This document shows positions 880 to 31,756 of a stretch of 59,254 nucleotides of DNA, piece by piece. The stretch spans positions 1-59,254 of the forward strand of contig JAYWFY010000045.1 of assembly GCA_043778555.1 (NCBI GenBank), written 5' to 3'. Made by a program: the position numbers and the translations under genes. Under the pieces are notes generated by a model that was not told the DNA's origin, searched no databases, and saw only the letters and a list, made by a program, of their open reading frames with translations. The stretch is from a bacterium (GTDB taxonomy: Bacteria; Patescibacteriota; JACMRA01). The first letter of the stretch is position 1; every line of letters starts with the position of its first letter.

Positions 880-3390
880 TTAGTTTTGGGTTTCGTTATC
901 AAAAAATACTTTTATTCCGCACTTACAGTTTATTTCAGTGTTCGGGAATGGATAGCCAATAGAAAATGGTTTATTATAATCTACAATCTCGCCATAAATT
1001 GCTTGGTGGTTTAGTCTTCGCTCTTTGGAGATACTTGGTAGCCATTGTTTTTTCTTTGCTCCAAATTCTCCAGCACTAATTGCACTACCTGCTCCAAAAG
1101 CTGTGATTGCTTCGTTGCTGGCTATTAGCTCCGAACGGTTGTCAATATCCACTTCAATAGCTTGATTTATTTCAGCTTCAAAATCAGTGTTACTTGTTAG
1201 GTTTTGGTAGGCTCGGTCAATTATTTCTATCAGATTATTTCGTGTCGTGTCCAAAATTGAATTTTCAAAGCCTGGATTTCGTACATCTTTAGAATTAGGC
1301 TTGTTTTCTAGCCCTGAAAGGCTGTTTAGTCTCTGAGCGGTGTATTCGTCAAAAGAATTATTAACCGCTGTTCTATCGTCCTGTGTAAAGTCGTTTTTTC
1401 CTTGTTCTTTGGCTTGTCTCAAAACATCCTCTTTTCCGAGATTTAGATAGTACAAAAATGAGTTAGAAATTGGTAACCACGCTTTTTTGTCATCTTGAAC
1501 TAAGATATTTACATAATCAGCTATATTTTCTGAAGTGTAGTCAATCTCGTCTTCAAACCCTGCTTTTAGTTCTACATTTTTTTTGAGTGGAGATAGGTCA
1601 ATTTTGTACATCTTTTTTAGAATGCCTTTGACCTGATTTTTGAGTTCGTCTTTTTGGGTTCCAAGTAATATCTGATCGCAAAGTGAGTATTCCCTATTTT
1701 GACCTTTGACCGAATCCAAAAAGCTAAACAGTTTCTTTTTTTGTTGAACACTGAATTTTGGCAAGTCATTTTTATTAAACTTAGAGTAGCCGTTAACCTT
1801 ACTTTCTGATTCCTTTTGATCTTGATCCGTCCAAACTTCTTTTGCCGTTTCTAATAGTTTTCTTTTGCCTGTGTCTTCTTTTAGCTTTGGTTCGGTAAAG
1901 GTTAATGGCTCCACATCAACTGCAAATGGTTTTAAGTTATTGATAATTTTTACAGGTTCGGCTTGTTTTTCTAGTTTGGTTTCAACTGGATTTTCAACTA
2001 TGATTTCTTTTTGTTCTGGTGCATTTTGGTCTTTAATTTCGTCTTCTACACTTTCTCGCACCGTCTGGACCAAAGTTTCATCGTCAATCTTCTCGTCCAC
2101 ATTATCCGTCAAGCCCTCGTCTGAGTTACCTTCTTTGAGTTCTCCTTCTTTAATGACCGTCAAATTGTTTGGCATTACCCTAAAATTATCTTCTTCGGTC
2201 GTTTCCTGCTCATCAATTCTGTACCCTAGCATTTTGACCTGTTTAGCTGTCCAGATACCGTTTTTGTAGCCTTCGGTGTATCTGTTGATAATATCACTAT
2301 CGCTTTCCACCTGCATTTGTACCGCTTTTGCAGTATGTTCTGGATAGAATATAGGTAGTACCCAAGAATTGTAAAGCTCCTCAAGCTTCTTTTGCATTTG
2401 AACGATTGCAAGATCCTTTAGATTCTGTCGGTGTGTGATTTGCTCTCCTGAGCCCAACGCTCCAGTGTTCGGATTTCCAAAGAAAGTAGGCACGCCATAG
2501 ACCTGGTAGATACTGTCTTTGATATATTGTTTGTCCGCAATACTTAGTCGGTGTTCAATGCCTTGTTTGATTTGCTCTATTTTGTCCACTCCATAAACTA
2601 CGCTTGCCTTATATCTATTTTCTGATTTGACCAATTCGGATTCCATTCGTTTCAAGATTGACAATTCTTCTAAATCTAAACCATCTTTGGCAAAAATAAC
2701 CGTGCCAAAAAAACTATTATTCTCCAGAAATTTGTTGAAGTTTTGGTTGTCGAGATTGAGCGTGTTTAATTCATCGTAAAGCGTATTAAGTGGAGACAAA
2801 CCAAAATACTGCGAGCTGATATTGGCTTTTTTGAATACCTTGAACGATCCAGCATTTACTTTTTTGCTGATAACTTCGCCTGCATAAATCCACCAAAAAC
2901 TATCAATCTTAAATCTCTTGGCTTGGAACAATGAAACTTGATGAGCTGGAATATTCCTTAAATATAATTCTTTTTCTTCGTTCTCAAAGATTGTCGGCAT
3001 TGCCTGACCATAAACAAGGATATTCTGACAAAATAGCTCGTTAAAAGTATGGTAACCATCAGCCAACTTTTCTGTAAAATCCAGCTCAACTTCCTCTTTA
3101 TCTTTGTTGTAAAATTTCAAACCTAAATTGGTTGTGATTTTGGTTATAAGATCAACGCAGCTGACAACCTCGTCAAAAATCTGGTAATAATTCCAGTATG
3201 TCCAGAACTTAGGAACTTGAATTGTCGACTTTATGCTGTCATCTTCATCAACCGCTTGCCTGACTTCAAGATTAGTATTCTTTGCCGTTTTATTTTCTCC
3301 ACCAAATCTAAACCTGTCATAAAAATTTGACGGCGATACTCTGCTAATTGCTTTCGATTCAAGCTGTTTTGATTTGTTTTTTTTTGGCAT
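880..3390 (-). CDS. Portal protein fused to a MuF/SPP1-gp7-like minor head domain
   Basis: 836-aa ORF just downstream of terL. It has a portal-sized N-terminal part and an acidic low-complexity linker (EGELKEGNSDEG..DEIKDQ). The C-terminus ..ERRLNHQAIYGEIV..NTEINCKCGI resembles the Phage_Mu_F signature. Confidence 0.7.
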   Translation of the reverse strand: MPKKNKSKQLESKAISRVSPSNFYDRFRFGGENKTAKNTNLEVRQAVDEDDSIKSTIQVPKFWTYWNYYQIFDEVVSCVDLITKITTNLGLKFYNKDKEEVELDFTEKLADGYHTFNELFCQNILVYGQAMPTIFENEEKELYLRNIPAHQVSLFQAKRFKIDSFWWIYAGEVISKKVNAGSFKVFKKANISSQYFGLSPLNTLYDELNTLNLDNQNFNKFLENNSFFGTVIFAKDGLDLEELSILKRMESELVKSENRYKASVVYGVDKIEQIKQGIEHRLSIADKQYIKDSIYQVYGVPTFFGNPNTGALGSGEQITHRQNLKDLAIVQMQKKLEELYNSWVLPIFYPEHTAKAVQMQVESDSDIINRYTEGYKNGIWTAKQVKMLGYRIDEQETTEEDNFRVMPNNLTVIKEGELKEGNSDEGLTDNVDEKIDDETLVQTVRESVEDEIKDQNAPEQKEIIVENPVETKLEKQAEPVKIINNLKPFAVDVEPLTFTEPKLKEDTGKRKLLETAKEVWTDQDQKESESKVNGYSKFNKNDLPKFSVQQKKKLFSFLDSVKGQNREYSLCDQILLGTQKDELKNQVKGILKKMYKIDLSPLKKNVELKAGFEDEIDYTSENIADYVNILVQDDKKAWLPISNSFLYYLNLGKEDVLRQAKEQGKNDFTQDDRTAVNNSFDEYTAQRLNSLSGLENKPNSKDVRNPGFENSILDTTRNNLIEIIDRAYQNLTSNTDFEAEINQAIEVDIDNRSELIASNEAITAFGAGSAISAGEFGAKKKQWLPSISKERRLNHQAIYGEIVDYNKPFSIGYPFPNTEINCKCGIKVFFDNETQN

Positions 3391-3414
3391 AATCTAGCAG
3401 TCGGCTTTGTTTTA

Positions 3415-3444
3415 ATTTTACACTGTACCCCCTAAAGTTTGCAA
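3415..3444 (-). promoter_or_regulatory. Late promoter copy c (upstream of portal)
   Basis: Minus strand: TTGCAA-actttAGGGGGTACAGTG-TAAAAT, with an 18-nt spacer. Confidence 0.55.
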
Positions 3445-3924
3445 TTTCTTTAGATTAAATTTAGTATATTCTTTATCTCCAACTTTTTTAACTATAATAG
3501 TTTTAAATATTACTCTTGCCTGAAAATTATAAAAATCGTTAATAATCAAAGAAAATACTTGAATTAGCTTAGTAACATCACAACAATAATACTTGACCCC
3601 AAACTCAATATTTAGCTCGAATTGATTGGATCTCATATAATCTTTTTCTAGTTCTGATATTATTGGTAATTCAGCGATTACAAGAGCTTGATATTCTCTA
3701 TATTCCTTTTTTTGACTAAAATAGTCGTTTCTTCTGAATGCTTCATGTGAGCTAAGTGGTCTTAGGTTTATGTAGATCTCTCTAGCCAACAACGGGTTTT
3801 GCATCTCCTCAATTAACCTTTTTTTGAGTTTGGCTATTCTAGTGGTGCTTTGAGTTGGATTATTCCTTGCCTTCTTTGCCACGGGGTGCTGGGTTAAAAA
3901 TTCACTGATAGTAATTTTGTTCAT
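3418..3924 (-). CDS. Hypothetical protein between terL and portal
   Basis: 168-aa ORF tightly packed in the late operon. No motif recognised. Its 3' end overlaps a late-promoter copy. Confidence 0.55.
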   Translation of the reverse strand: MNKITISEFLTQHPVAKKARNNPTQSTTRIAKLKKRLIEEMQNPLLAREIYINLRPLSSHEAFRRNDYFSQKKEYREYQALVIAELPIISELEKDYMRSNQFELNIEFGVKYYCCDVTKLIQVFSLIINDFYNFQARVIFKTIIVKKVGDKEYTKFNLKKLQTLGGTV

Positions 3925-3936
3925 TGGATTTAATTG

Positions 3937-5187
3937 TTAATTTTGATCTGGGAATAATAGTTTAAGTTTGGCGGTTCGGTCGTTTTTAGGCTTTGTAAAG
4001 TGTTGCAGTGAATAGCGTAGGGAATCACAACAATCATCCAAAACCTTTACAGGTTCATCTTTAATACCATCTTTATTTGTTGCCCATTGGTAGTTTTCAA
4101 CTTCTTTAACTAGATTTTTTGACCCTGCTACGATTTTTAATTTGTAGTTTTGCATGGCTGTGATTCCTGCCAATACTGAACCCGCTCCTTTGTCCGCTGC
4201 CTTTGCCTTGTATCCTGCTTTGACAAGGGTTTCAATTAGTTCTGGTCTGGCTCCATCACAGATAATTGGTATAGTTTTTTCAATCTTTAGGGCATTAAGT
4301 TCAGCAACTAGCATATCGCCAGTCAAACCCCTCTTGTAGAGCATTTCTTGTCCGTAAAGTTCCTTGACTTCCTTATCAATTACCCCAGTCTTGACCATCG
4401 CTGTAGGGTGGTTAAACCCAAAATCCAAACCATAGCAAAAGTCAATGTCTGGAAATTCTGGCACGGTGTCATATTCAGGGAATATCAAGCCCTCTAGTTT
4501 TTGACCCCATTCGCCTTGAGCGTAAATTTTGTAATAATTTGGATTGGTTTTGGCAAAGTCTTCAAGCGTTTTGACATAGTTTTTGTCTAGGAATTTGTTG
4601 TCTTTGTAAGTAGTTTTCAAAATAAAATGATCATCAGGTAGCTTGTCGTGAATCTCTTTTTTGAGCCAGTGATTGACTGAGATTGGATTGTACATCAGCG
4701 TAATTTGCACTTCTTCAAAGCCTCTTAAACGGAGTGACAATTGGTCTAGCTTGTCTCGGCTCTTGATATCCGTGGCTTCTTCAATTACAATTCTGTCCGC
4801 TCCAGAGATAGATTTGACCTTTTCTGGGTCGTCCAAACCTAGAAATATAAATTCCACCTCGGTTAGTTTGTTGATTACGGACAGTGGCGAAACTGTAAAA
4901 GTAAAGTATTGCTGGATATTCCAATCGTTAATTAGTGATTTGATTTGGTTGTAGCAAGAGTTCTTGAGTGTTGAGTAATACTCACGGATTACCAGCGTTT
5001 TGCGTCCTTTGCGTCGATAATCAAAAGTCAAGGCAATTTCTTTTTGAAACTCAAAGACAGATTTTCCACTTCCAGCCGAACCCACAAGGTGCAAAAACCT
5101 TGCTTTATTCTCAAACAAAGGAATATATACTGAGTTGTACAGATCAGGATTAGAAAAATCAAAAGTTTGTTTTTGAATATTTGGCAT
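3937..5187 (-). CDS. terL: Terminase large subunit
   Basis: 416 aa with Walker A-like LVGSAGSGKS and a C-terminal nuclease-like acidic region (ICDGARPE, LDDCCDSLRY). It sits upstream of the portal gene. Confidence 0.85.
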   Translation of the reverse strand: MPNIQKQTFDFSNPDLYNSVYIPLFENKARFLHLVGSAGSGKSVFEFQKEIALTFDYRRKGRKTLVIREYYSTLKNSCYNQIKSLINDWNIQQYFTFTVSPLSVINKLTEVEFIFLGLDDPEKVKSISGADRIVIEEATDIKSRDKLDQLSLRLRGFEEVQITLMYNPISVNHWLKKEIHDKLPDDHFILKTTYKDNKFLDKNYVKTLEDFAKTNPNYYKIYAQGEWGQKLEGLIFPEYDTVPEFPDIDFCYGLDFGFNHPTAMVKTGVIDKEVKELYGQEMLYKRGLTGDMLVAELNALKIEKTIPIICDGARPELIETLVKAGYKAKAADKGAGSVLAGITAMQNYKLKIVAGSKNLVKEVENYQWATNKDGIKDEPVKVLDDCCDSLRYSLQHFTKPKNDRTAKLKLLFPDQN

Positions 5188-5192
5188 TATAT

Positions 5193-5213
5193 AATACTAT
5201 ATGTAGGGGTTAG
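5193..5213. repeat. 21-nt direct repeat, copy 1 (AATACTATATGTAGGGGTTAG)
   Basis: Identical to 5338-5358. It ends 5 nt from the terL ATG. Confidence 0.85.
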
Positions 5214-5311
5214 CTTAATTTTTTTGCAATAGCCTTGTTTTTGCTATTTTCCCAGTGTCGGGAAATTGAGTAAATTAAAAGTTTTCTCGGTGTTTTTGGA
5301 CTTTGGGAGTG

Positions 5312-5830: not shown

Positions 5831-7435
5831 TTAGTTTAATTTTTCTACATCAAAAGGTTCTCCGTTGAGTGTAAGTTTGTAAGGTTTGTCATTTTTGGTT
5901 AGATAGACTGTAGCTCGTTTGATTATTACTTCTACATATACAGGATCTAGCTCTAACCCAAAACATCGCCTGCCAGTTTGAATTGAGGCAATAAGTGTTG
6001 AACCTGAACCAAGAAAAAAATCAATGATTAGCCCAAACTCTGGACAACTAGATTTTATTGCTCGTTGACACAGCGGCAAAGGTTTTGGTGTGGCGTGGTT
6101 ACCTTCATCTCCTTGTTTTGCGTGTCTTTCAAAATGCCAAACATTGTTCATATTCTCGTGGGTGTTGTTAAAGTATGCTCTGGTTGAGTTATATTCTGTT
6201 TGGAGTTGATTGTATTCTTTTTTGAAAGCATCTATGTTGTTTTGTTTTGCGTATTGTTGTAGTTTTAAGTAATTTTGAGCAGCAATAAGTGTCCATTGAC
6301 TTCCTGTTGGGCTTATATGGTGAGCATACATTCCTCCTCCACTAGTTTTAAGACCAAGTGCTGTGTTAAATGAATTTGAGTTAGCTATTTGGCATTTTAC
6401 ACTTTCATTGTACAAATAATCCCTAATCGGCTCCCATCCTTCAAAATAGTTATCAGCGTTGTTATTAGATCCTTGCACTCCACTCATAACAAAAAGACAT
6501 TTTTCATCTGCTATCGCAAAACTTCTAGTATTTTCTGAATTTTGACCTTGACCATGTGCTTTGTCCCAAGTTATCAAATTTCTAAAAGTTGCTTTTTGAT
6601 CCGATACAAGTGGCTTAATAATTTGGCTATAAATGTCCATCAGTGGTTCATCAATACCCCAGCAATACCACGAACCATTGTCTTTGATATATTGCCACTG
6701 TAGGAATATCCAGTCTTTATTAAATTGTAATAGGTCTTCATAGTTCATATTGTCGCCAATGACACCATCTTTTTCTTTCTTCATACCATAGGGGGGATCG
6801 TTGTGTGCAAGGTCAGCTTTTTGTCCGTTCATTAACTTTTCTACATTGTCAACAACAGTGCAATCTCCGCACATTACACGACTTTTTAGACCATCCACTT
6901 CTAACTCAAAAATATCCCCAATTTGAACCAACTTTGCCTTTCTATCTGGAGGGGGTGTATCATTTATTTCTTCATCTGGTAATTGCTCGCTTTCTAGTTG
7001 CTCCAGCATAAAATCCAAACTTCCCATACTCACTTCTTGCAAAGCCATTTCTTGCAATTCCTCTAAATCAAAATCAAAGCTCGTAAAATCTGCCAAACTT
7101 GTCTGAGTTATCTCGCCGTGCTGTGAATTGATCAATAGTACAATCTTTTTGGCTTCCTTGATATTTTTGGCTTCAAAGAATAAAACAGGCAAATCTGGTA
7201 TCGTATAGCCTTCTTTTGCAAGTTCTGCAAGTGCTTGCCTTCTACCTGTTCCATCTGCTACATAATCTTTCCAAGCCAAAATGGGAGTGGTAAATTGTGA
7301 TTTTAGGATTGACTTTTTGAGTTTGGATACATCTCTGTTCTCGTTAGATTTCAAAGTGTTAAAATCCATTTTGACAAAATCTGTGTACGGTACAAATTCC
7401 AGTTTTTGCTTTCTGATAGATATTGTTTTTGACAT
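5831..7435 (-). CDS. ParB-like nuclease domain / DNA methyltransferase fusion
   Basis: The N-terminal part is ParB/Srx-like (..VADGTGRRQAL..). Motif IV is NDPPYG and motif I FFLGSGST lies near the C-terminus, the beta-class order of an N6A/N4C methyltransferase. Confidence 0.8.
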   Translation of the reverse strand: MSKTISIRKQKLEFVPYTDFVKMDFNTLKSNENRDVSKLKKSILKSQFTTPILAWKDYVADGTGRRQALAELAKEGYTIPDLPVLFFEAKNIKEAKKIVLLINSQHGEITQTSLADFTSFDFDLEELQEMALQEVSMGSLDFMLEQLESEQLPDEEINDTPPPDRKAKLVQIGDIFELEVDGLKSRVMCGDCTVVDNVEKLMNGQKADLAHNDPPYGMKKEKDGVIGDNMNYEDLLQFNKDWIFLQWQYIKDNGSWYCWGIDEPLMDIYSQIIKPLVSDQKATFRNLITWDKAHGQGQNSENTRSFAIADEKCLFVMSGVQGSNNNADNYFEGWEPIRDYLYNESVKCQIANSNSFNTALGLKTSGGGMYAHHISPTGSQWTLIAAQNYLKLQQYAKQNNIDAFKKEYNQLQTEYNSTRAYFNNTHENMNNVWHFERHAKQGDEGNHATPKPLPLCQRAIKSSCPEFGLIIDFFLGSGSTLIASIQTGRRCFGLELDPVYVEVIIKRATVYLTKNDKPYKLTLNGEPFDVEKLN

Positions 7436-16511: not shown

Positions 16512-17006
16512 ATGATACAACCTAAAAAACAATTTTTAGAAACACTTACAAAGCTAAATTATTTAGAAATGACAAATCACGATTTATTGTGGGACATGAT
16601 GGCTAAAACTTTTCATGAAAATATTCCCAAACCAAAATACGATACAAAATACAGGGGTTATGTTGATTGCAAAACTACACTTGCAATTGTCAACGCTGGT
16701 ATAAAAGACGGCTGGGTAAGAACTATCCCAAACCCTGAAGCAAAAAGCTCAAAAGAAGATGAAAATGTTTTGGTAGCTATTGAAGATGTCGATTTTTACC
16801 GCCACATTGCCACTATGTTTTCCAAGGCTAAGTCCAAAGAAATTATTAAAGAAGTGGAAATCATGGGCTTAAAAAAGTATGAAGTCGTAAGTTTTAAATC
16901 TCAAGGAAAAAGTTTAGCAAAACATAAGTCCAAAATTATGGCTGATTTTGTCGATGACTATCTCAAAACTTTTTATAATGTTGACCTCCAAAGCGTTTTA
17001 AAATAA
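16512..17006 (+). CDS. Hypothetical accessory ('moron') protein
   Basis: 164-aa ORF in the plus-strand island. No motif recognised. Confidence 0.55.
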   Translation: MIQPKKQFLETLTKLNYLEMTNHDLLWDMMAKTFHENIPKPKYDTKYRGYVDCKTTLAIVNAGIKDGWVRTIPNPEAKSSKEDENVLVAIEDVDFYRHIATMFSKAKSKEIIKEVEIMGLKKYEVVSFKSQGKSLAKHKSKIMADFVDDYLKTFYNVDLQSVLK

Positions 17007-17011
17007 AAAGC

Positions 17012-17042
17012 TTGACAACTAATCCCAAACCATCTTTAATAT
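17012..17042 (+). promoter_or_regulatory. Promoter for 17085..17708
   Basis: TTGACA followed at 17-19 nt by TTTAATAT. Confidence 0.45.
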
Positions 17043-17084
17043 TAGTAACTCACTCAGAGTTATTTTTTGTTGTTTATCCCCTTT

Positions 17085-17708
17085 ATGTCTGAAAATTCTT
17101 CAACCGTCGTCAAACCAAAACCTTGGTACACCAAAAAACGCTTTATTATTCCATTAGTTTTAGTTGGGATTGGAATAATCGGTAATCTTACAGCCCCAAA
17201 ACCAGCCCCTACATATATTGTTAATGGTGCAAATGCTACAACAAGTGCAGGAGCGTCAATTATCACAAACAACCAACCAAAAAGCGGTGAGGTTATTGTT
17301 GATTTTAATACTGTATTTCCAATTGACGGATTCAATCTTAAAGTGGAAAAAGCTGAATGGCTGGATAATATCGTAAATGATAATCAGTTTTTCAAACCAT
17401 ACGAAGCTAAGAAGAAAATATTAAAACTAACTTTTGACGGCGAAAATACAAGTAAAGTAGGTAAAAATTTGTCATTCTACAACGCTAAAATAAACACTAA
17501 AGACGGCTTTGAGTTCTCAAAGATTCAAGATATAAATGTGACTAGCATGGAACAAGTCAAAGATTTGCCAAAAGGTTACACTGGCTGTCTATCGTGCAAA
17601 GTAGAGCCGCTAGGGAAAGCAAAAGAATATATATATTTTGATATTCCTGAAAAACCTTTAACCGATTTAAATTTATCAATTAGAGATACAAAAATTAAAC
17701 TTCAATAA
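17085..17708 (+). CDS. Membrane-anchored DUF4352-like (Ig-like beta-sandwich) surface protein
   Basis: ATG at 17085 (MSENSS..; the track start at 17067 is a TTG). TM segment FIIPLVLVGIGIIG, then a beta-rich domain with ..KILKLTFDGENTS..YIYFDIPE... It has its own promoter and terminator. Confidence 0.55.
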   Translation: MSENSSTVVKPKPWYTKKRFIIPLVLVGIGIIGNLTAPKPAPTYIVNGANATTSAGASIITNNQPKSGEVIVDFNTVFPIDGFNLKVEKAEWLDNIVNDNQFFKPYEAKKKILKLTFDGENTSKVGKNLSFYNAKINTKDGFEFSKIQDINVTSMEQVKDLPKGYTGCLSCKVEPLGKAKEYIYFDIPEKPLTDLNLSIRDTKIKLQ

Positions 17709-17732
17709 TCTTACACATTATTTGATAACTCT

Positions 17733-17762
17733 ACCCCCTCCAAAGGTGGTTTTTTATTGCCT
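17733..17762 (+). terminator. Cassette terminator, copy 1
   Basis: ACCCCC-tccaaa-GGTGGT hairpin with one internal mismatch, then TTTTTATTGCC. Confidence 0.5.
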
Positions 17763-17777
17763 ATCCTCTTTCCAAAG

Positions 17778-17807
17778 TTGACACTTCAAGTCAAAAAATG
17801 ATAAGAT
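17778..17807 (+). promoter_or_regulatory. Promoter for 17814..18722 (leaderless)
   Basis: TTGACA-18-TAAGAT, with the ATG 6 nt downstream. Confidence 0.55.
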
Positions 17808-17813
17808 TAAACA

Positions 17814-18722
17814 ATGTCAAAAAACTTACTCGAGCTCAAATATCAGGGTCAAGCTGTTGATGATGGCTCTATTGATTTGCAAGATTTAATCCCTGCTTTG
17901 ATAGGAATGGACGAGATTTTACAAAGAATTAACAAGCTTATTAATGGCGAAAGCTCAAGGTTAATAGTCAAAGCCCAACCCCTAGAAAAAGGTTCTGTAG
18001 TTATTACTTTGGAGTTGGTGACCAATTTTATCCAAACTCTTTTTTCTGGTGTAGATACAGTTCAGGCTAGTGCCAAAATTCTTGAAGTACTTCTTGGTAC
18101 TGCTGGCGTAGCTGGCTTGATTAAAGCTATCAAAATGAAGGCTAGCGAGGATTTGTCAACTATTGAGTATTTTGAAAATGATGACGGCAAAACTGTTACA
18201 ATGAAGACAGCAAAAGGACAAATAGCAATTTGCAAAGAAGGACTGATATTGTTAGGAGATAAAGATATGGTTAAAGCTATAAAAAAAGTAATTGTAGATC
18301 CTATTCAAAAAAATAACTTAGATCAATTAATAATCTCTAAAATTCAGGATAGTAATAAAATATCAGAAAGTATTACTTCTCAAGAGGTGAGCTATTTTGA
18401 TTTTGAGCCATTGTCAAAAGAAAGCCAGCTAGATGACCAAACTGGAGAAGACTATTTGCAAGTGATTAGCCCAAACCTAGATCCTGACAAACAACTCAAA
18501 TGGGAATTCCGAAGGACAGGTTCAAAGATATTTGCAAATATGAACGATGCTGACTTTTGGGCAAAATTAAAGAATGGAGATCAAAAAATATCAGTCAACG
18601 ATATTTACAAATGCAAAATTACTACCAAATACTGCGTCAAAGGCGGAGAGGTCAAAGGCGATGTATCTATAGATAAAGTACTTGAAGTTATCAACAATGA
18701 CACTAGCCAAAAATTGTTTTAA
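17814..18722 (+). CDS. Hypothetical 302-aa accessory protein (leaderless, own promoter and terminator)
   Basis: ORF track. TTGACA-18-TAAGAT lies 6 nt upstream of the ATG, and a terminator follows at 18741-18770. Confidence 0.6.
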   Translation: MSKNLLELKYQGQAVDDGSIDLQDLIPALIGMDEILQRINKLINGESSRLIVKAQPLEKGSVVITLELVTNFIQTLFSGVDTVQASAKILEVLLGTAGVAGLIKAIKMKASEDLSTIEYFENDDGKTVTMKTAKGQIAICKEGLILLGDKDMVKAIKKVIVDPIQKNNLDQLIISKIQDSNKISESITSQEVSYFDFEPLSKESQLDDQTGEDYLQVISPNLDPDKQLKWEFRRTGSKIFANMNDADFWAKLKNGDQKISVNDIYKCKITTKYCVKGGEVKGDVSIDKVLEVINNDTSQKLF

Positions 18723-18740: not shown

Positions 18741-18770
18741 ACCCCCCCTAATAGGTGGTTTTTTGTTGCC
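18741..18770 (+). terminator. Cassette terminator, copy 2
   Basis: ACCCCC-cctaata-GGTGGT, then TTTTTGTTGCC. The 18-mer AGGTGGTTTTTTRTTGCC is shared with copy 1. Confidence 0.5.
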
Positions 18771-18816: not shown

Positions 18817-18846
18817 TTGACAAAATGATATAAAATAGTATATAAT
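18817..18846 (+). promoter_or_regulatory. Promoter for 18855..19868 (leaderless)
   Basis: TTGACA-18-TATAAT, with the ATG 8 nt downstream. Confidence 0.65.
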
Positions 18847-18854
18847 GATATAGT

Positions 18855-19868
18855 ATGAAATTATCACAATATGCAAAATTAAAAGGAGTATCCTATTTGA
18901 CAGCCAAAAAATGGTTTCACGCTGGAGATATTAAAGGTGTACAAATGCCGAGCGGTACAATTGTTATTGACGAATTAATCCCCGAAAAATTAGTTGATCC
19001 AAATATTATTAAAGTATCCCACCAAGGAAAAATTACAATTGGAGATTTCAAATTACCTTGTTATGTGCTAGAAAATGGATTGAGAGTTTTGTCAGGGCGT
19101 GGCATGCAAGCCTCTTTATCTATCAACAACACTGGCGGCCAAAAAATGGTCAGTTTTATAACCAAAAGTAGTTTAAAACCTTTTATTGACGCTGAAATAA
19201 TTGCGGCCATAAACACTCCGATGCAATTTGCAAATAAACAAGGAAAAATAGGATATGGTTTTGAAGCAAAAATATTAAATAAAATATGTTCAAATTTGTT
19301 GTCATATAGAAGGCATTGTTTACAAAACAATATGGCTATTTCTGATTCAGAAAATAGGATAATTAGTCAATGTGAGATTCTTCAAGGTGGATTTGCTGAG
19401 GTTGGTATTATAGCCCTCGTTGACGAAGCCACAGGCTATCAAGGAGATAGGCAAAAAGATGAGCTTCAAAAGATCCTTAGTGCATATATTTCTAAAGAAC
19501 TTTTACCTTGGCAAAAACGATTCCCAAATGAGTATTACGAGCAAATATGCAGACTTAGAGATTGGAATTATGATCCTCTTACTCAAAAAAGACCACAAAT
19601 CATCGGTAAAATTACAAATCAGATTGTGTATAAACTATTGCCAGACGGCATTTTAGAAGAATTAAGGAAACTTAATCCACCAAATGAGAATGGTAATAGA
19701 TCGCAAAACCATCACCAATTTTTGACACTTGATATTGGTAATATTAATCTTGAAAGGCACTTAGCTCAAGTCATAGTTTTGATGAGAATTTGTAAATCTT
19801 GGGTAGAGTTTGAAGAAAAACTATACGACGCTTTCCCCAGATTTGGTCAACAAGAAAAATTATTTTAG
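18855..19868 (+). CDS. P63C-domain protein with N-terminal excisionase/MerR-type HTH
   Basis: N-terminus MKLSQYAKLKGVSYLTAKKWFHAGDIKG. C-terminal P63C-like block ..ALVDEATGYQ..WQKRFPNEYYEQICRL..NHHQFLT... The final G of the TAG stop is the first base of the IS inverted repeat. Confidence 0.65.
   Translation: MKLSQYAKLKGVSYLTAKKWFHAGDIKGVQMPSGTIVIDELIPEKLVDPNIIKVSHQGKITIGDFKLPCYVLENGLRVLSGRGMQASLSINNTGGQKMVSFITKSSLKPFIDAEIIAAINTPMQFANKQGKIGYGFEAKILNKICSNLLSYRRHCLQNNMAISDSENRIISQCEILQGGFAEVGIIALVDEATGYQGDRQKDELQKILSAYISKELLPWQKRFPNEYYEQICRLRDWNYDPLTQKRPQIIGKITNQIVYKLLPDGILEELRKLNPPNENGNRSQNHHQFLTLDIGNINLERHLAQVIVLMRICKSWVEFEEKLYDAFPRFGQQEKLF
19858..19867. repeat. Target-site duplication, left copy (AATTATTTTA)
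   Basis: Immediately abuts the left TIR. Identical to 21932-21941. Confidence 0.8.
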
Positions 19869-19879
19869 GTAATTATCCC
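19868..19879. repeat. IS left terminal inverted repeat GGTAATTATCCC
   Basis: Perfect reverse complement of 21920-21931. Confidence 0.8.
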
Positions 19880-19908
19880 TTGACAACACTTAAATAATAT
19901 GATATAAT
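19880..19908 (+). promoter_or_regulatory. Transposase promoter abutting the left TIR
   Basis: TTGACA-17-TATAAT, starting 1 nt after the TIR. Confidence 0.65.
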
Positions 19909-19929
19909 TATAGGGTAATAAACAACCTT

Positions 19930-20841
19930 ATGATTCCTCAAAAATTCGTCAAATATACTATAAAAGAATTTCGTAAAAACTTTGCCACAGATGACATTTG
20001 CCTAGATTATCTATTCAAACAGTTCTACGGTCATTTGAGTGATTTTGATAAATACTACAAAATTAAAGGTCGTAAAGAATATGTACACTCTGTAACTGGA
20101 GAGCATATCTCGCCAACTGCAAATAGTATTTTTCATAAATCTAGTACTCCTTTGACAACTTGGTTTGAGGTAATCTACAAGTTCTGTAATAGTCGAAATG
20201 GTGTTAGTGCAATGGAAATAATGCGTGATTTTGGTATGACCTACAAATGTGCTTGGAGAGTTGCAAATCAAGTAAGAAGTCTGTTTGGATCAAATAAAGC
20301 TGACAAACTAGCTGGAATTATAGAGGCGGACGAAACTTACATCGGAGGCAAAGAAGGTAATAAAAAACTAAGTAAAAGACAAAAAGGAACTCAAGGTAGA
20401 AGCTCCAAAACAAAAACTCCAGTGATAGGAGTTGTAAAGCGAACTGATGAAGATTCTAAGTCTGAAATTCGAGCTAAAGTAGTCGCTGATACTTCACGAT
20501 CAACAATAATGCCATTTGTCAAAGCAAATGTAGAAATCAATTCTAGTTTGATGACTGATGAATATCAATCTTACAACGGAGCATATAGTGCTGGATATGA
20601 CCACCAAAGAGTAATCCATAGCTCTAGCCAATATGTCCTTGGAAATGTTTATACAAACACTTTGGAGGGCTTTTGGTCACTGCTTAAATGTGGAATTACT
20701 GGAACTTATAGAATGGTCTCACCAAAGTATCTACAAATGTATGTCAATGAGTTTATGTATCGTTACAATCACGACCATAGCAAATCTCATTTGTTTGACA
20801 CTGTACTTTGTAATTTAGTTAAGAATGATTTAATTGTTTAG
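19930..20841 (+). CDS. IS1595-family (ISXO2-like) DDE transposase
   Basis: 303 aa. ..LAGIIEADETYIGGKEGNKK.. and ..LMTDEYQSYNG..HQRVIHS..TNTLEGFWSLLK fit the DDE_Tnp_IS1595 pattern. Confidence 0.8.
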   Translation: MIPQKFVKYTIKEFRKNFATDDICLDYLFKQFYGHLSDFDKYYKIKGRKEYVHSVTGEHISPTANSIFHKSSTPLTTWFEVIYKFCNSRNGVSAMEIMRDFGMTYKCAWRVANQVRSLFGSNKADKLAGIIEADETYIGGKEGNKKLSKRQKGTQGRSSKTKTPVIGVVKRTDEDSKSEIRAKVVADTSRSTIMPFVKANVEINSSLMTDEYQSYNGAYSAGYDHQRVIHSSSQYVLGNVYTNTLEGFWSLLKCGITGTYRMVSPKYLQMYVNEFMYRYNHDHSKSHLFDTVLCNLVKNDLIV

Positions 20842-21869
20842 TCAAAAAGTGGGATTGGCTGAGGAGTATTTGGATATGGTATCCTCTCGTTTAACCTAGC
20901 CATCGCTTCGTTCATATCGCCTCCAGAATCAGCTGTTTGTTCAAAAATCAATTCTGCTTTCCCAAGTACATATTTCATTTGTTCTCTTCCATAATCTGTG
21001 AGGTTTTGGTGTAACCTGTGTTTATATCCTCCATTTTTTGATTTAATTGCCCTATCTTTTAACTCTTCTAAAATAACTGAGCCAGCAGGAAGGCGTTTAT
21101 AAAGATCATTTGTTATCCAAGAAACACATTGAGGGTGGTTTATTTTCTCGAGTGAATAATGATCCCATTCCCAACTATAAAGCCTATAAATCTGTTTATA
21201 AAACTCTTCAGGAAATAATTTTAACCAAGGTCTCAGTGCGTCTGCTATATTTTTCTTAATTACTTCTTGCCATTCATTTATTCTTTTTTCATATCCAGTT
21301 ACTTCATAAATCAACGCTTTGATTCCTATTTCCGCGAGTGATTCAACAAGTATTTCTGTCTGTTTTACTAGTAATAAAGACAATTTTGGGTCAGGTAAAA
21401 TTTTGTAATCGCTACTTTTTTCGCGATTGATTCTTGTAATTGCTGTACAAAGTTTAGGTAAAATTTCAGCTGGAATAAGAGCTGTTTTCATACCTCCTCC
21501 TTTACCTCTTTTCCCGTACAGAGGATATTTAATTGAGTTTAATACATCTTGAGTAATTAATGACCTAAAAATTACTTTTCCAAAAAGTTCTTCTAAGGCA
21601 GTTCCTCGTTTTGAATCTAAAAAAAACAATTTTTGTACATCATTTCTAGCTAAAAGAGTTATTGCTTCATTATTTTCATTTTTTCCTACATAGCATTCTA
21701 AACTTATTTCTCCAAGATTTAGCTGGTTTTCTGGCTCACCTGCAATTATTGGAATAAGGTCAGCCCTTTTAGCTTTTTTAAGTGTTTCGTTTATTTGAAT
21801 TTGAAATTGTTCTCGCTCTTTATTAAGCTCTTCATCATTTTGAAGTTGGCTAGATGTAGTTGTAATCAT
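20838..21869 (-). CDS. P63C-domain protein (IS passenger gene)
   Basis: ATG at 21869 (MITTTSSQ..). ..ALIYEVTGYE..WLKLFPEEFYKQIYRL..HRLHQNLT.. is paralogous to 18855..19868. A promoter lies 8 nt upstream. Confidence 0.65.
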   Translation of the reverse strand: MITTTSSQLQNDEELNKEREQFQIQINETLKKAKRADLIPIIAGEPENQLNLGEISLECYVGKNENNEAITLLARNDVQKLFFLDSKRGTALEELFGKVIFRSLITQDVLNSIKYPLYGKRGKGGGMKTALIPAEILPKLCTAITRINREKSSDYKILPDPKLSLLLVKQTEILVESLAEIGIKALIYEVTGYEKRINEWQEVIKKNIADALRPWLKLFPEEFYKQIYRLYSWEWDHYSLEKINHPQCVSWITNDLYKRLPAGSVILEELKDRAIKSKNGGYKHRLHQNLTDYGREQMKYVLGKAELIFEQTADSGGDMNEAMARLNERIPYPNTPQPIPLFD

Positions 21870-21877
21870 ACCAGATA

Positions 21878-21907
21878 ATTCTACAATAAAAATTACCACT
21901 ATGTCAA
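21878..21907 (-). promoter_or_regulatory. Promoter of the IS passenger P63C gene (leaderless)
   Basis: Minus strand: TTGACA-18-TAGAAT, with the ATG 8 nt downstream. Confidence 0.6.
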
Positions 21908-21919
21908 AAGTGGCGTTAG

Positions 21920-21931
21920 GGGATAATTACC
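21920..21931. repeat. IS right terminal inverted repeat GGGATAATTACC
   Basis: Perfect reverse complement of 19868-19879. Confidence 0.8.
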
Positions 21932-21941
21932 AATTATTTTA
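21932..21941. repeat. Target-site duplication, right copy (AATTATTTTA)
   Basis: Immediately abuts the right TIR. Confidence 0.8.
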
Positions 21942-22064
21942 AACTATATTAATTTTAGCTTTAGATCCACAAACAGGGGTTTTTCTCACGCCCAAAAACC
22001 AGTGCAAAAATAGAAAAGTGTGTAAATAAACAGAATAACTAACTATTCAAGCAACTTTCTTTAG

Positions 22065-22082
22065 AGGTGGGTTTTTATTGCA
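22065..22082 (+). terminator. Cassette terminator-like copy 3 (stem unclear)
   Basis: AGGTGGGTTTTTATTGCA lies about 125 nt beyond the IS. It is probably the original terminator of 18855..19868. Confidence 0.35.
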
Positions 22083-22097
22083 TTATTTTAGTAGACC

Positions 22098-23294
22098 CTA
22101 CTTTTTGACAGCCTCTCCACCACTGGCAATACAAGCCTCCATAGTGTCATAATTTGTCCAAGTTTTGGTCGTGCTATATCCTGCTGTTCCTCTAAAGTGA
22201 CATTTGCCAGAGCTGGCAGTTTTGATCACTGCACTTTTCTCAAGGCTGGTTGGGTTGGTAACTTTTGGAGTTTCTATTATTTGAGCTTTTGGTGTCTCTA
22301 ATTTTGGTGATGTTATAGCTGGTGTCTGTGCAACTGGCGGAATTAAGACATTAGTTTTAGTATTTTCTTTGCTTGCTTGAGTTGTATCTCCGTTACAAGT
22401 GTCAGCCGACCACAATCCTCTTTGGTTCTCTCTAGCAGATTTTTGAGCATTTAGATAAATTTCTGATCTTGGATGCGGAAACTTCACATAGGCGTTGGCA
22501 TAACCGTCTAGTATAGCATTGTAATTGTAATCATAGCCTGTTTCTGTAGTAATATATGCCAAGACTCTATTGTATTTGTCAATCCTGTCCGAAGGGTTAA
22601 ATTCTAGTTTGACTTTTTGACCGTCAAGTTTATTGTGAGCATTTTGACTAGCTTCTTTTCCAAAACATTGCACTACTTTGCGCGGATCTTTGGTTTCGGG
22701 TGTGTCTATGCCTATCAATCTCAGTGTTCCATACTTTTCTACTTTGACAGTATCTCCATCTACCACTTTCAAGATTTTGACATATTCTCCAATAGGCAAT
22801 GTATTTATAACTTTTTCCACTTCTTTTATATCATTGACAACCTCTACTTTTTGACCGTCGTTGTCTATGGTTTTGCCCTGTTCTAGTTTGATATATTCAG
22901 AGCTTGAGACAGTGACTGTTTGACTAGATGTTGCGATTATAGAGCTACTTGATAGCCTAGCGTCTTTTGTGCCAGATTCAGGTAATAAAGAACTTTGTAC
23001 GCTACTTGAGCTTAGTATGCCCAAAGTTTGTTTTGCATCTTTTACAGGATCTATCTTATTTGTTCCAGTTACTACTGCCGTCCAAGCCGTGCCGACTATA
23101 CCTAGGAAAAATATTGGCAAAATTAAAATTGCTACTTTTGCCCACTTTGGCATTTTGAGTTTCCAAACAAATCTTATTAGAAAATATCCAAGTACAAAAA
23201 ATAAAGCGTAAAAGCAAACCATTAATGCTAAGATATAGCAAATGATTCCCAGGATTTTGTTTTTTGTGTAAATTGATTTTAATTTTTGTATCAT
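22098..23294 (-). CDS. Membrane-anchored thermonuclease (SNase-like) with a Cys-containing C-terminal module
   Basis: N-terminal TM helices and an S/T-rich linker. The SNase core is ..VDGDTVKV..LRLIGIDTPETKDP..R.LAYI... The C-terminus SGKCHFRGTAGYSTTKTW..ACIASGG is sunset-domain-like. Confidence 0.7.
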   Translation of the reverse strand: MIQKLKSIYTKNKILGIICYILALMVCFYALFFVLGYFLIRFVWKLKMPKWAKVAILILPIFFLGIVGTAWTAVVTGTNKIDPVKDAKQTLGILSSSSVQSSLLPESGTKDARLSSSSIIATSSQTVTVSSSEYIKLEQGKTIDNDGQKVEVVNDIKEVEKVINTLPIGEYVKILKVVDGDTVKVEKYGTLRLIGIDTPETKDPRKVVQCFGKEASQNAHNKLDGQKVKLEFNPSDRIDKYNRVLAYITTETGYDYNYNAILDGYANAYVKFPHPRSEIYLNAQKSARENQRGLWSADTCNGDTTQASKENTKTNVLIPPVAQTPAITSPKLETPKAQIIETPKVTNPTSLEKSAVIKTASSGKCHFRGTAGYSTTKTWTNYDTMEACIASGGEAVKK

Positions 23295-30088: not shown

Positions 30089-31756
30089 TCACACTTTCAA
30101 ACTCATAATCACACCGACCCGCTCTTGACAAAACTGTAATAAATAATCAACCTTAAAAGGTTCAATATTGACCCGCTCAGTTGCACCATTGACAAATTCA
30201 TCATCTAATTCACCCCAAAAGTCCCTTAACAAAGGGCTTTTTTGTTGGTTCAATACAACCACTTTGTCATCTTTCTTATAGACTACAAATCCTTCAGGAA
30301 AAAGCAAGTTCAAAAGCTTTTTTTTAGTGGTATTATTGGCTTGATTAAAGCGTTTGTCAATTTCTATAGCTTCATCCAAACAAAGGTTCAATACATCTCC
30401 GACTTTGGCTTTTGGCTCACTAGATAATTTAATCAATTCTTTTTTGTATTCTAAAATCTTATTATTGTTTTCTACAGATTTTTTTTCAATAGCTTTCACC
30501 AAAGCTGGAGAATCAACAAGTAATATTTTTGCCACTGCCGTTTCATTTTCGATTTCAATATCTTTAATTTTTCGTTTAATCTTATCAATTTCTTTTTGGT
30601 TTTCAGCTTGTATATTTTTAGCTTTCTCTCCGAGGTATTTTTGCAGGTATTGAATAAATTTCAATGACAATACTTGTTTGGACAAATAGTTCAAAACTTC
30701 AAGCTCTATGAGTTCAGAGCGTATTGTCTTTGATTGCTGGTTACAGCCACGAGTGGGGCAAGCGTAATATTGCCACTCCAAAACACTCCCATTTTTTAAT
30801 GTTTTCTTTTTTAATTGTGTTGTCATGAAGTTTTGACACTCACTACATTTAGCGCAGCGTTTAAATATAAATTGATTATTGTTATTTTTCATGTATGCTG
30901 ATCTTTGAGATTTATTAATTCTTTCTAATATTTTTAAGTAAGTGTTTAAATCGATAATAGGCTTGTGAAGAGCATTTGACTTTGGGAAATTTGTTTTTTT
31001 GTCTACATTCTTTGGGTCGTACATATCTACGCCTTGGTTGGGTTTGTGGATAAATCCAGCATACAGAGGATTGGTGAGCATATCTTTGACATCCTCTTGT
31101 CTCTTGTTTATTCCAAGGCTTCTCAGATACTTTTGAACCTCTGCGCAACCTGAATAATTCCCATTAGCAAAGTCTTCTAGTAGCTCTTTAACTACAGGGG
31201 CTTTATCATTTTGTTGCATTATTTTAAGTTGTGATTTACCACTATTGTCATAGCCAAGTGGTGAGCCATAAAACCAATAACCTTGCTGGAGTCTCGCTTT
31301 TGACCGCTCCTTGGCTGTAGTAAGGTTAGATTTACGCATAAACTCATCTTGCCCACCCATCATCGTGAGCATTAACCAGCCAGCGTCAGTTTTCATATCT
31401 ACACCGTGCAGGTTAAAAAATTGAACATCATAATTATAGTCTTTTGTCAGTGTATCTACTGTAGAAAGCAGGAATATTACATCCCGAGCTAGCCTTGAAG
31501 TAGAAGGAAACAGCACCGTCAGATTTGGATTTTCTTTGCATTTTACTAGCAACAAATCAATCCCCTCTCGCTGTCTATTTCCTCCGCTAATAGCTTCATC
31601 TTGGAATGATTCCATGATCATATACCCATATTTTTTGGCATATTCCTTGCACTCTTGTAGCTGTGAACTCAGACCATTACCTTCGGTGACTTGCTTCCGT
31701 GATGACACTCTGCAATAGGTAAAACAGGGCTTTAGTTCTTGGACTTGGTCGGACAT
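30089..31756 (-). CDS. int: Large serine recombinase (integrase)
   Basis: 555 aa. N-terminal resolvase motif ..FTYCRVSSRKQ... It also has a recombinase domain, a zinc ribbon (CAKCSEC..YYACPTRGC) and a C-terminal coiled coil. Confidence 0.85.
   Translation of the reverse strand: MSDQVQELKPCFTYCRVSSRKQVTEGNGLSSQLQECKEYAKKYGYMIMESFQDEAISGGNRQREGIDLLLVKCKENPNLTVLFPSTSRLARDVIFLLSTVDTLTKDYNYDVQFFNLHGVDMKTDAGWLMLTMMGGQDEFMRKSNLTTAKERSKARLQQGYWFYGSPLGYDNSGKSQLKIMQQNDKAPVVKELLEDFANGNYSGCAEVQKYLRSLGINKRQEDVKDMLTNPLYAGFIHKPNQGVDMYDPKNVDKKTNFPKSNALHKPIIDLNTYLKILERINKSQRSAYMKNNNNQFIFKRCAKCSECQNFMTTQLKKKTLKNGSVLEWQYYACPTRGCNQQSKTIRSELIELEVLNYLSKQVLSLKFIQYLQKYLGEKAKNIQAENQKEIDKIKRKIKDIEIENETAVAKILLVDSPALVKAIEKKSVENNNKILEYKKELIKLSSEPKAKVGDVLNLCLDEAIEIDKRFNQANNTTKKKLLNLLFPEGFVVYKKDDKVVVLNQQKSPLLRDFWGELDDEFVNGATERVNIEPFKVDYLLQFCQERVGVIMSLKV

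Follow-up and report, generated by a model that had tools for sequence, protein, structure and literature searches.

The IS1595 family of insertion sequences includes members that carry passenger genes (Siguier, Gagnevin and Chandler 2009, Res Microbiol 160:232, as cited in PMC12561309), and its insertions typically leave target-site duplications of 8 bp (7-9 bp in the IS1016 group) in A/T-rich targets (PMC12561309). Here we describe a member of this family in contig JAYWFY010000045.1, a stretch of 59,254 nucleotides (hereafter the window) that represents a temperate siphovirus-like phage. The element occupies positions 19868-21931 and is an intact transporter, that is, an insertion sequence with a passenger gene inside its ends. 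Its passenger, or cargo, encodes a P63C-domain protein, and the insertion lies at the stop codon of a second P63C gene of the phage, which we call the resident gene. The element is like the family as described in its transposase type, its catalytic residues, its short inverted repeats starting with GG and the placement of the passenger inside the repeats, and its sister copies share the A/T-rich targets and 8-bp duplications. It is unlike the family in its phage-type P63C cargo, its phage carrier, its 10-bp duplication and its lack of the PF12760 zinc ribbon. Passenger-carrying IS1595 elements were already known; what is new is that the cargo is P63C, that this cargo recurs and is exchanged in two IS1595 lineages, and that the carrier is a phage.

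Several described systems resemble parts of this locus. ISApl4, a member of the IS1016 group, has a transposase of the same family and perfect terminal repeats starting with GG, and it prefers A/T-rich 8-bp duplications as the sister elements do; unlike the window element, it is 712 bp long, cargo-free and chromosomal, and it moves resistance genes solely as a two-copy pseudo-compound transposon (PMC12561309). The P63C proteins that phages encode on their own (PF10546, PHROG 2384) belong to a family that takes its name from Myxococcus phage Mx8 p63. They share a full-length architecture of ~300-350 amino acids with both window proteins, whereas one of the two window copies rides inside a transposon. 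Lastly, the element is comparable to phage “morons”, single genes with their own strong promoter that lie between phage modules and are found in the same region of the window (17067-18722 and 22098-23294). Morons, however, have neither a transposase gene nor inverted repeats, whereas the window element keeps its acquisition machinery attached and intact. It is a clear case of a transposon that has brought an accessory gene to a phage and has kept its delivery machinery.

Direct reading of the window establishes the boundaries of the element. The inverted repeats are perfect over their outer 12 nt (GGTAATTATCCC at 19868-19879 and GGGATAATTACC at 21920-21931), and a repeat search lengthens them to 24-nt arms with 83% identity (19868-19891 and 21908-21931). 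The 10-mers at the two junctions are identical while the 8-, 9- and 11-mers that touch the element are not, so that the duplication in the window copy is exactly 10 bp. When the 24-mer terminus is scanned over the whole window, two sites match at 24/24 and 20/24 and all others at 15/24 or fewer; shuffled sequence gives 0.4 sites at 17/24 and zero above. The repeat thus exceeds what chance would produce. The left 24-mer also recurs in three related elements (L007, L011 and L013; L- and P-numbers are our own identifiers). A first-pass annotation of this DNA, made from the sequence alone, had reported the perfect 12-bp repeats, the abutting 10-bp direct repeat and an element of 2,064 bp, all of which agree base for base with our exact re-reading. 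Its wider description, an IS1595-type element with a P63C gene within its inverted repeats and inserted at the stop codon of a P63C paralogue, is correct in all three respects. A DNA search with the window element returned zero matches among GenBank phages and PLSDB plasmids, and a look-up of the exact cargo protein did not find it.

Membership in the IS1595 family, as first annotated, follows from the transposase, which passes both available profiles: PF12762 (DDE_Tnp_IS1595; E 4.5e-43, 147.3 bits against a cut-off of 27) and NCBIfam NF033547 (193.7 bits against a cut-off of 75). Residues D134 (in an ExDETYIGG motif), D210 (TDE), N243, E246 and K253 are invariant across 17 close and 11 divergent sequences. 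We take these to be the catalytic residues, on the assumption that D, D, N/E...K is the catalytic pattern of the family. An N-terminal zinc ribbon (PF12760) is common in IS1595 transposases and is not universal. We did not detect it in the window transposase or in its 25 closest homologues (P0001-P0025), and alignment shows that the cysteine pairs of the ribbon are replaced and six residues deleted in this clade (window 19930-20130); PF12760 is present in more distant IS1595 transposases. Elements of the ISNwi1 subgroup in ISfinder have ends of the form GGnnatTAT, and the end of the window element, GGTAATTAT, is consistent with this form.

From left to right the element consists of the left repeat, a promoter, the transposase gene, a convergent P63C gene with a promoter of its own, and the right repeat (Table 1). 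A near-consensus promoter just inside each end had been noted previously, and both sites score accordingly. The convergent P63C gene had likewise been recognized, and its product matches PF10546 well above the cut-off of 26.1 bits (E 9.4e-17, 61.9 bits). Alignment with the L007 copy makes the ATG at 21869, not the GTG at 21899, the most likely start. The -10 hexamer of the cargo promoter ends 8 nt before this ATG in both the window (21867-21883, reverse strand) and L007, a gap so short that the cargo mRNA may be leaderless or nearly so. The stop codons of the two genes overlap by 2 nt, with no terminator between them. The transcript of each gene would therefore continue antisense into the other, an effect that could restrain the transposase.

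Table 1. Features of the element and of the resident P63C gene, in window coordinates.
Feature	Position	Strand	Remarks
Resident P63C promoter-like site	18817-18846	+	TTGACA, 18-nt spacer, TATAAT; 12/12
Resident P63C gene, 337 aa	18855-19868	+	PF10546, PHROG 2384
Left copy of 10-bp target-site duplication	19858-19867		AATTATTTTA; direct reading
Left inverted repeat	19868-19891	+	GGTAATTATCCCTTGACAACACTT; includes -35 hexamer of transposase promoter
Transposase promoter-like site	19880-19908	+	12/12, TG before -10 hexamer; -35 within left repeat
IS1595-family DDE transposase gene, 303 aa	19930-20841	+	PF12762, NF033547
Cargo P63C gene, 343 aa from ATG 21869	20838-21869	-	PF10546; open frame up to GTG 21899
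Cargo P63C promoter-like site	21878-21907	-	TTGACA, 18-nt spacer, TAGAAT; 11/12
Right inverted repeat	21908-21931	-	20/24 matches to left arm; outer 12 nt perfect
Right copy of 10-bp target-site duplication	21932-21941		AATTATTTTA; direct reading

At its left boundary the element contributes to the reading frame of the resident gene. The resident protein is a clear member of the P63C family (PF10546; E 1e-33, 116.2 bits against the same cut-off) and is 30% identical to the cargo protein over 254 amino acids. The first base of the element (19868) is the last base of the resident TAG stop, which is made up of TA from the target and G from the repeat. Deleting the element and one duplication copy in silico yields ...AAA TTA TTT TAA, with TAA restored at the same codon, exactly as the first-pass annotation had proposed; the reconstructed empty site is GAAAAATTATTTTAAACTATATTAATT. 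The exact 27-mer of this empty site has no match in IMG/VR. All 12 contigs with the exact resident protein share the neighbouring genes, including the element, and the two copies that we read (L009 and L010) differ from the window copy by one base. The insertion looks fixed within the window's own phage.

Comparison with a related phage demonstrates that the element is mobile. Metagenome contigs L007/L008 encode a transposase 96% identical to that of the window. In L007 the element copy is 91% identical in DNA, has perfect 24-bp repeats (24/24) and an 8-bp duplication (ATATTTTT), and lies 318 bp downstream of the stop of the resident orthologue, which is itself 91% identical to the window's in protein and 83% in DNA. 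The L007 resident gene ends ...GAC AAA TTG TTT TAG, with its own TAG at the homologous codon and no element there; given that the gene ends naturally at this codon, L007 provides the unoccupied equivalent of the window site. The arrangement thus varies among relatives, a point on which the first-pass annotation had made its reading depend. Between the window and L007, dS is 0.483 for the transposase gene and 0.485 for the cargo P63C gene versus 1.26 for the resident gene. The lower values for the element indicate that the common ancestor of its copies is more recent than that of the phage backbones, and the equality of the two indicates that both genes travelled together. The transposase, cargo and resident genes are all under strong purifying selection (dN/dS 0.038, 0.055 and 0.045, respectively), and the value for the cargo marks it as a functional gene. 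The L007 insertion, at 1187, interrupts an open reading frame (ORF; 912-1208, reverse strand) with a BstA_C domain; translated by hand, the frame continues without a stop through the reconstructed junction and as far as the contig end. BstA is an abortive-infection protein of prophages.

We find that P63C recurs as an exchangeable cargo on two IS1595 lineages in phages and is not an occasional passenger. In the lineage of the window element, a transposase gene with a convergent P63C gene is found in four further elements, whose transposases are 46-61% identical to the window's. The first (L011/L012; 59%) has a bacterial chromosomal context, the same 24-bp terminus and an 8-bp duplication (GTAAATAA); the second (L013; 58%) has the same terminus and no duplication; the third (L096/L097; 60%) has the left end GGTAAGTATCCC, its right end lying beyond the contig; and the fourth (L016; 46%) has a probable 8-bp duplication (TTTTAAAA). 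The good inverted repeats of L013 (5954-7909) are flanked by non-matching sequences (TTTTTATG and TACATAAT), which suggests a later rearrangement or recombination between copies; the target duplication is likewise absent from L184 and L189 of the second lineage described below. Carriage of P63C is not general among more distant relatives. A scan of JGI metagenomes with the window transposase gave matches of 48% identity at most, and P63C is absent at 79 of 80 of these loci (transposases 34-48% identical), the exception being L016. It is also absent at all six loci from the candidate phyla radiation (37-44% identical). One relative with a 55% identical transposase (L098) has an N6/N4 DNA methyltransferase gene (3338-4243, forward strand) in place of P63C, and another, at 51%, has no recognisable cargo. 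As a single query in IMG/VR, the window transposase returned zero relatives. Among species-representative genomes, its nearest relatives (L001-L006; 37-44% identical) all come from candidate-phyla-radiation (Patescibacteria) metagenome assemblies or unclassified genomes, a distribution that hints at the host range of the transposase lineage and does not identify the host of the phage.

A second IS1595 lineage carries P63C in a different architecture. Among 80 P63C loci from IMG/VR, 77 have no transposase alongside, and in the other three (L103, L130 and L177) an IS1595 transposase gene lies directly upstream in the same direction, with a stop/start overlap. These three transposases are of the zinc-ribbon type and 34-37% identical to that of the window. 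A search of IMG/VR seeded with these transposases gave 32 viral loci (L184-L215), and P63C lies immediately 3' of the transposase gene in 13 of them. Second-lineage ends read CGGAATGTCCCAG..., and 8-bp duplications in five members establish that these are true elements (L185, TTAAAAAT; L186, TTCATCTT; L188, TTCTGTTT; L190, AATTATTA; L210, ATTTCTTT); examples span 3415-6166 in L185, 3423-7169 in L186 and 3417-6126 in L188. L184 has a DNA methyltransferase gene (4410-5294, reverse strand; N6/N4 type) beside P63C inside its inverted repeats. In L215, a single ORF (3447-4877) joins the N-terminal zinc-ribbon region of the transposase to a P63C domain, and in L209 (3498-4890) and L211 (3492-4929) an N-terminal transposase fragment is followed by a P63C gene.

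The two genes of these elements have been reassorted. Across 105 pairs of elements, the correlation between transposase identity and P63C identity is weak (r = 0.44). For instance, the transposases of L011 and L013 are 82% identical and their P63C proteins 30%, and the corresponding values for L199 and L201 are 76% and 39%. Conversely, L097 and L184, which belong to different lineages, have transposases that are 35% identical and P63C proteins that are 53% identical. The closest relative of the window cargo is P0122 (52% identical), a solo phage gene adjoining a terminase gene, and the window's resident P63C is 62% identical to the L097 cargo, 54% to that of L013 and 48% to that of L184 versus 30% to the adjoining cargo. 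The junction between the convergent genes also differs from element to element: the overlap is 2 nt between stops in the window and, for called ORFs, 4 nt in L013, 17 nt in L016 and 23 nt in L011. Taken together, these comparisons show a two-way traffic of P63C genes between phage genomes and these elements. It is this exchange of cassettes that leads us to read P63C as exchangeable cargo, probably unrelated to transposition itself. The presence of P63C, and sometimes of a DNA methyltransferase, on two IS1595 lineages points to a way for accessory genes to spread among phages that the literature we searched apparently does not describe, and carriage on elements offers a handle on P63C, a widespread phage domain.

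Based on these data, we propose an explanation for the locus that, taken as a whole, we consider about 60% probable. The DDE transposase would have cut an A/T-rich target in the accessory region of the temperate siphovirus-like phage, and repair of the staggered cut would have given the 10-bp duplication. The cut would have fallen after the TA of the resident TAA stop, where the leading G of the element completed a TAG in its place and so left the resident protein unchanged, with the element replacing the gene's former 3' flank. The P63C and transposase genes would move as one unit, P63C being an exchangeable cargo that benefits the carrier phage and not a transposition factor. The position beside a paralogue would need no homing if insertions are tolerated in the accessory region only and the transposase prefers A/T-rich targets. 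Insertion sequences are poorly tolerated in phage genomes (PMC3429520), and we infer that the adjacency is due mainly to the tolerance of this variable region, insertion elsewhere in the phage being usually lethal.

A number of observations weigh against this explanation. The carriage of P63C in two architectures, the L215 fusion and the loss of the zinc ribbon fit a partnership with the transposase as well as they fit cargo, and P63C has no assigned function. The insertion is present in all 12 contigs of the window phage, and a true empty site was not found. The 10-bp duplication, which the first-pass annotation had rightly considered atypical, contrasts with the 8 bp of eight sister insertions (L007, L011, probably L016 and the five second-lineage elements), although the length of the duplication is a typical trait of the family and does not define it. 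An 8-bp duplication followed by two extra bases at the right end would give the same sequence and is less likely, given that it needs an extra unusual event. Finally, two independent insertions within ~320 bp downstream of the same resident orthologue would be rare by chance over a 59-kb genome.

The alternative that survives best, although we consider it unlikely, is that P63C is a working partner of the transposase, such as a regulator, an end-binding protein or a target selector, in a two-component transposon adapted to phages. All examined elements with transposases that share 58% identity or more with the window's have a convergent P63C gene (the window, L007, L011, L013 and L096), as does L016 at 46%, and the second lineage offers the same gene in the 13 of 32 loci described above, with the stop/start overlap of L103, L130 and L177, the fusion in L215 and the fragments preceding P63C in L209 and L211. 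Loss of the zinc-ribbon cysteines in the window transposase clade and the equal dS of the two genes of the window element point the same way. However, the swapping of P63C cassettes among close transposases and between the two lineages speaks against a partner. Furthermore, most P63C genes are solo in phages (77 of 80, and P0122 besides), most IS1595 elements are without P63C, and close relatives bear a methyltransferase gene or nothing in its place. If it is true that P63C acts with the transposase, these elements would represent a new kind of two-component transposon.

A second alternative, that the insertion was directed to the resident P63C locus, whether through recognition of a sequence or a protein present at such genes or through a local hop, we regard as distinctly unlikely. 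In its favour is the pair of independent insertions with intact duplications that lie 3' of orthologous resident genes, at distances of 0 bp in the window and 318 bp in L007; in addition, the P63C clade of the resident gene is the one that sister elements carry most often, as its identities to the L097 and L013 cargoes (62% and 54%) illustrate. Against this, nine other insertions (L011, L013, L016, L096, L185, L186, L188, L190 and L210) have no P63C gene outside the element in the flanking sequence retrieved, from which it follows that homing to P63C genes is not general; targeting to paralogues, which the first-pass annotation had suggested as one possibility, is unsupported as a rule. The resident protein is just 30% identical to the element's own cargo, and both insertions fall in the variable accessory region, where they do least harm. 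The targets are merely A/T-rich, which matches reports for the family (PMC12561309).

Matches to PHROG 2384, a family of unknown function, cover almost the whole of both the resident and the cargo protein, and the wider P63C family has nearly invariant charged motifs, LVDEATGYQ and FPxEFY. Neither P63C protein matches NCBIfam, Pfam gives nothing at E up to 1 for the N-terminal 135 amino acids of either, and PADLOC gives no match at E up to 0.01 for these two proteins or the transposase. A profile search of PDB sequences with P63C has a best E of 0.24. The AlphaFold model of the cargo protein is confident (mean pLDDT 86.5) and predicts an N-terminal beta-rich domain followed by the helical P63C region. 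A fold search of the PDB with this model gives a best E of 0.3, with TM-scores of 0.17 or less normalised to the query. Among predicted viral structures the model matches p63 of Myxococcus phage Mx8 (E 2e-6) and an unnamed protein (E 4e-7), and there are weak fold matches (E 0.01-0.1) to Bro, Bro-N and antirepressor N-terminal proteins. Literature searches on P63C, combined with phage or with transposase, and on ISNwi1 gave no functional or mechanistic paper, and none linking P63C with a transposase. Under the cargo explanation, P63C probably acts as a DNA-binding regulator similar to Bro proteins and antirepressors, or else as a factor in phage-phage or phage-host conflict; the sharing of elements with DNA methyltransferase genes and the accessory-gene setting would fit a role in phage regulation or conflict. 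A further-reaching form of the partner alternative would be a protein with a Bro-like N terminus and a P63C region that binds DNA and recruits or regulates the zinc-ribbon-less transposase. Such elements would form a phage-specialised class of two-gene transposons, and P63C-guided targeting would explain both insertions beside resident genes; we hold this extended proposal to be improbable.

A relic origin of the resident P63C gene, as what is left of an older P63C-carrying IS1595 element after loss of the transposase gene and both ends, would make the locus a site of nested or serial insertion and is in our view highly improbable. This idea draws on the finding that the closest relatives found for the resident gene are sister-element cargoes (L097, L013 and L184, with the identities given above), and on the fact that L096/L097 share a sample series with L007/L008 and with the window-phage contigs L009/L010. 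Around the resident gene, however, there is no trace of an inverted repeat, the best upstream match being 14/24, below the chance level of 15/24, and no transposase remnant lies downstream in either the window or L007; moreover, phages commonly have P63C genes on their own. A locus without any transposition, in which two ancestral P63C paralogues enclose a domesticated transposase gene, would suit the identical arrangement in 12 of 12 contigs of the window phage but is scarcely credible in the face of the inverted repeats with abutting duplication, the two-gene unit at another site in L007, the sister element in a bacterial chromosome (L011), the lower dS of the element relative to its flank and the intact catalytic residues.

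A short sequence recurs in the accessory region. An 18-mer, AGGTGG(G/T)TTTTT(A/G)TTGC, follows each forward-strand accessory gene (17743-17760, 18752-18769 and 22064-22081), three copies compared with 0.06 expected in the window, and the element now stands between the 22064 copy and the resident gene. The first-pass annotation had called this sequence terminator-like and shared with neighbouring genes; the sharing is confirmed. As a terminator the 18-mer was rejected: its hairpins are weak (-5 to -8 kcal/mol, z -0.6 to +0.5), the 22064 copy is without a convincing one, and a consensus scan places no terminator at any of these sites. Given this weak or absent folding, the terminator label is unsupported; the 18-mer may mark cassette boundaries. 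The resident transcript would meet no recognisable terminator before the transposase gene, so that read-through from the promoter at 18817 could raise transposase expression.

The remainder of the window supports its identification as a temperate siphovirus-like phage, with genes for a large terminase, a portal, a tape measure, a large serine integrase (30089-31756, reverse strand; 555 amino acids) and a DNA methyltransferase (5831-7435, reverse strand; 534 amino acids, with weaker N-terminal matches to ParB-like families). GenBank phages include none that is closely related to this one. Short genes that have promoters of their own surround the element: those at 16512-18722 on the forward strand and an SNase gene at 22098-23294 on the reverse strand. 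The latter, directly downstream of the element, encodes a 398-amino acid SNase-domain protein with hydrophobic N-terminal segments (membrane-anchored). Lastly, contig L009 (k141_1480223), which at 107,771 bp is nearly twice the length of the window, holds the same phage region; it may be a concatemer or else a prophage integrated into host DNA.

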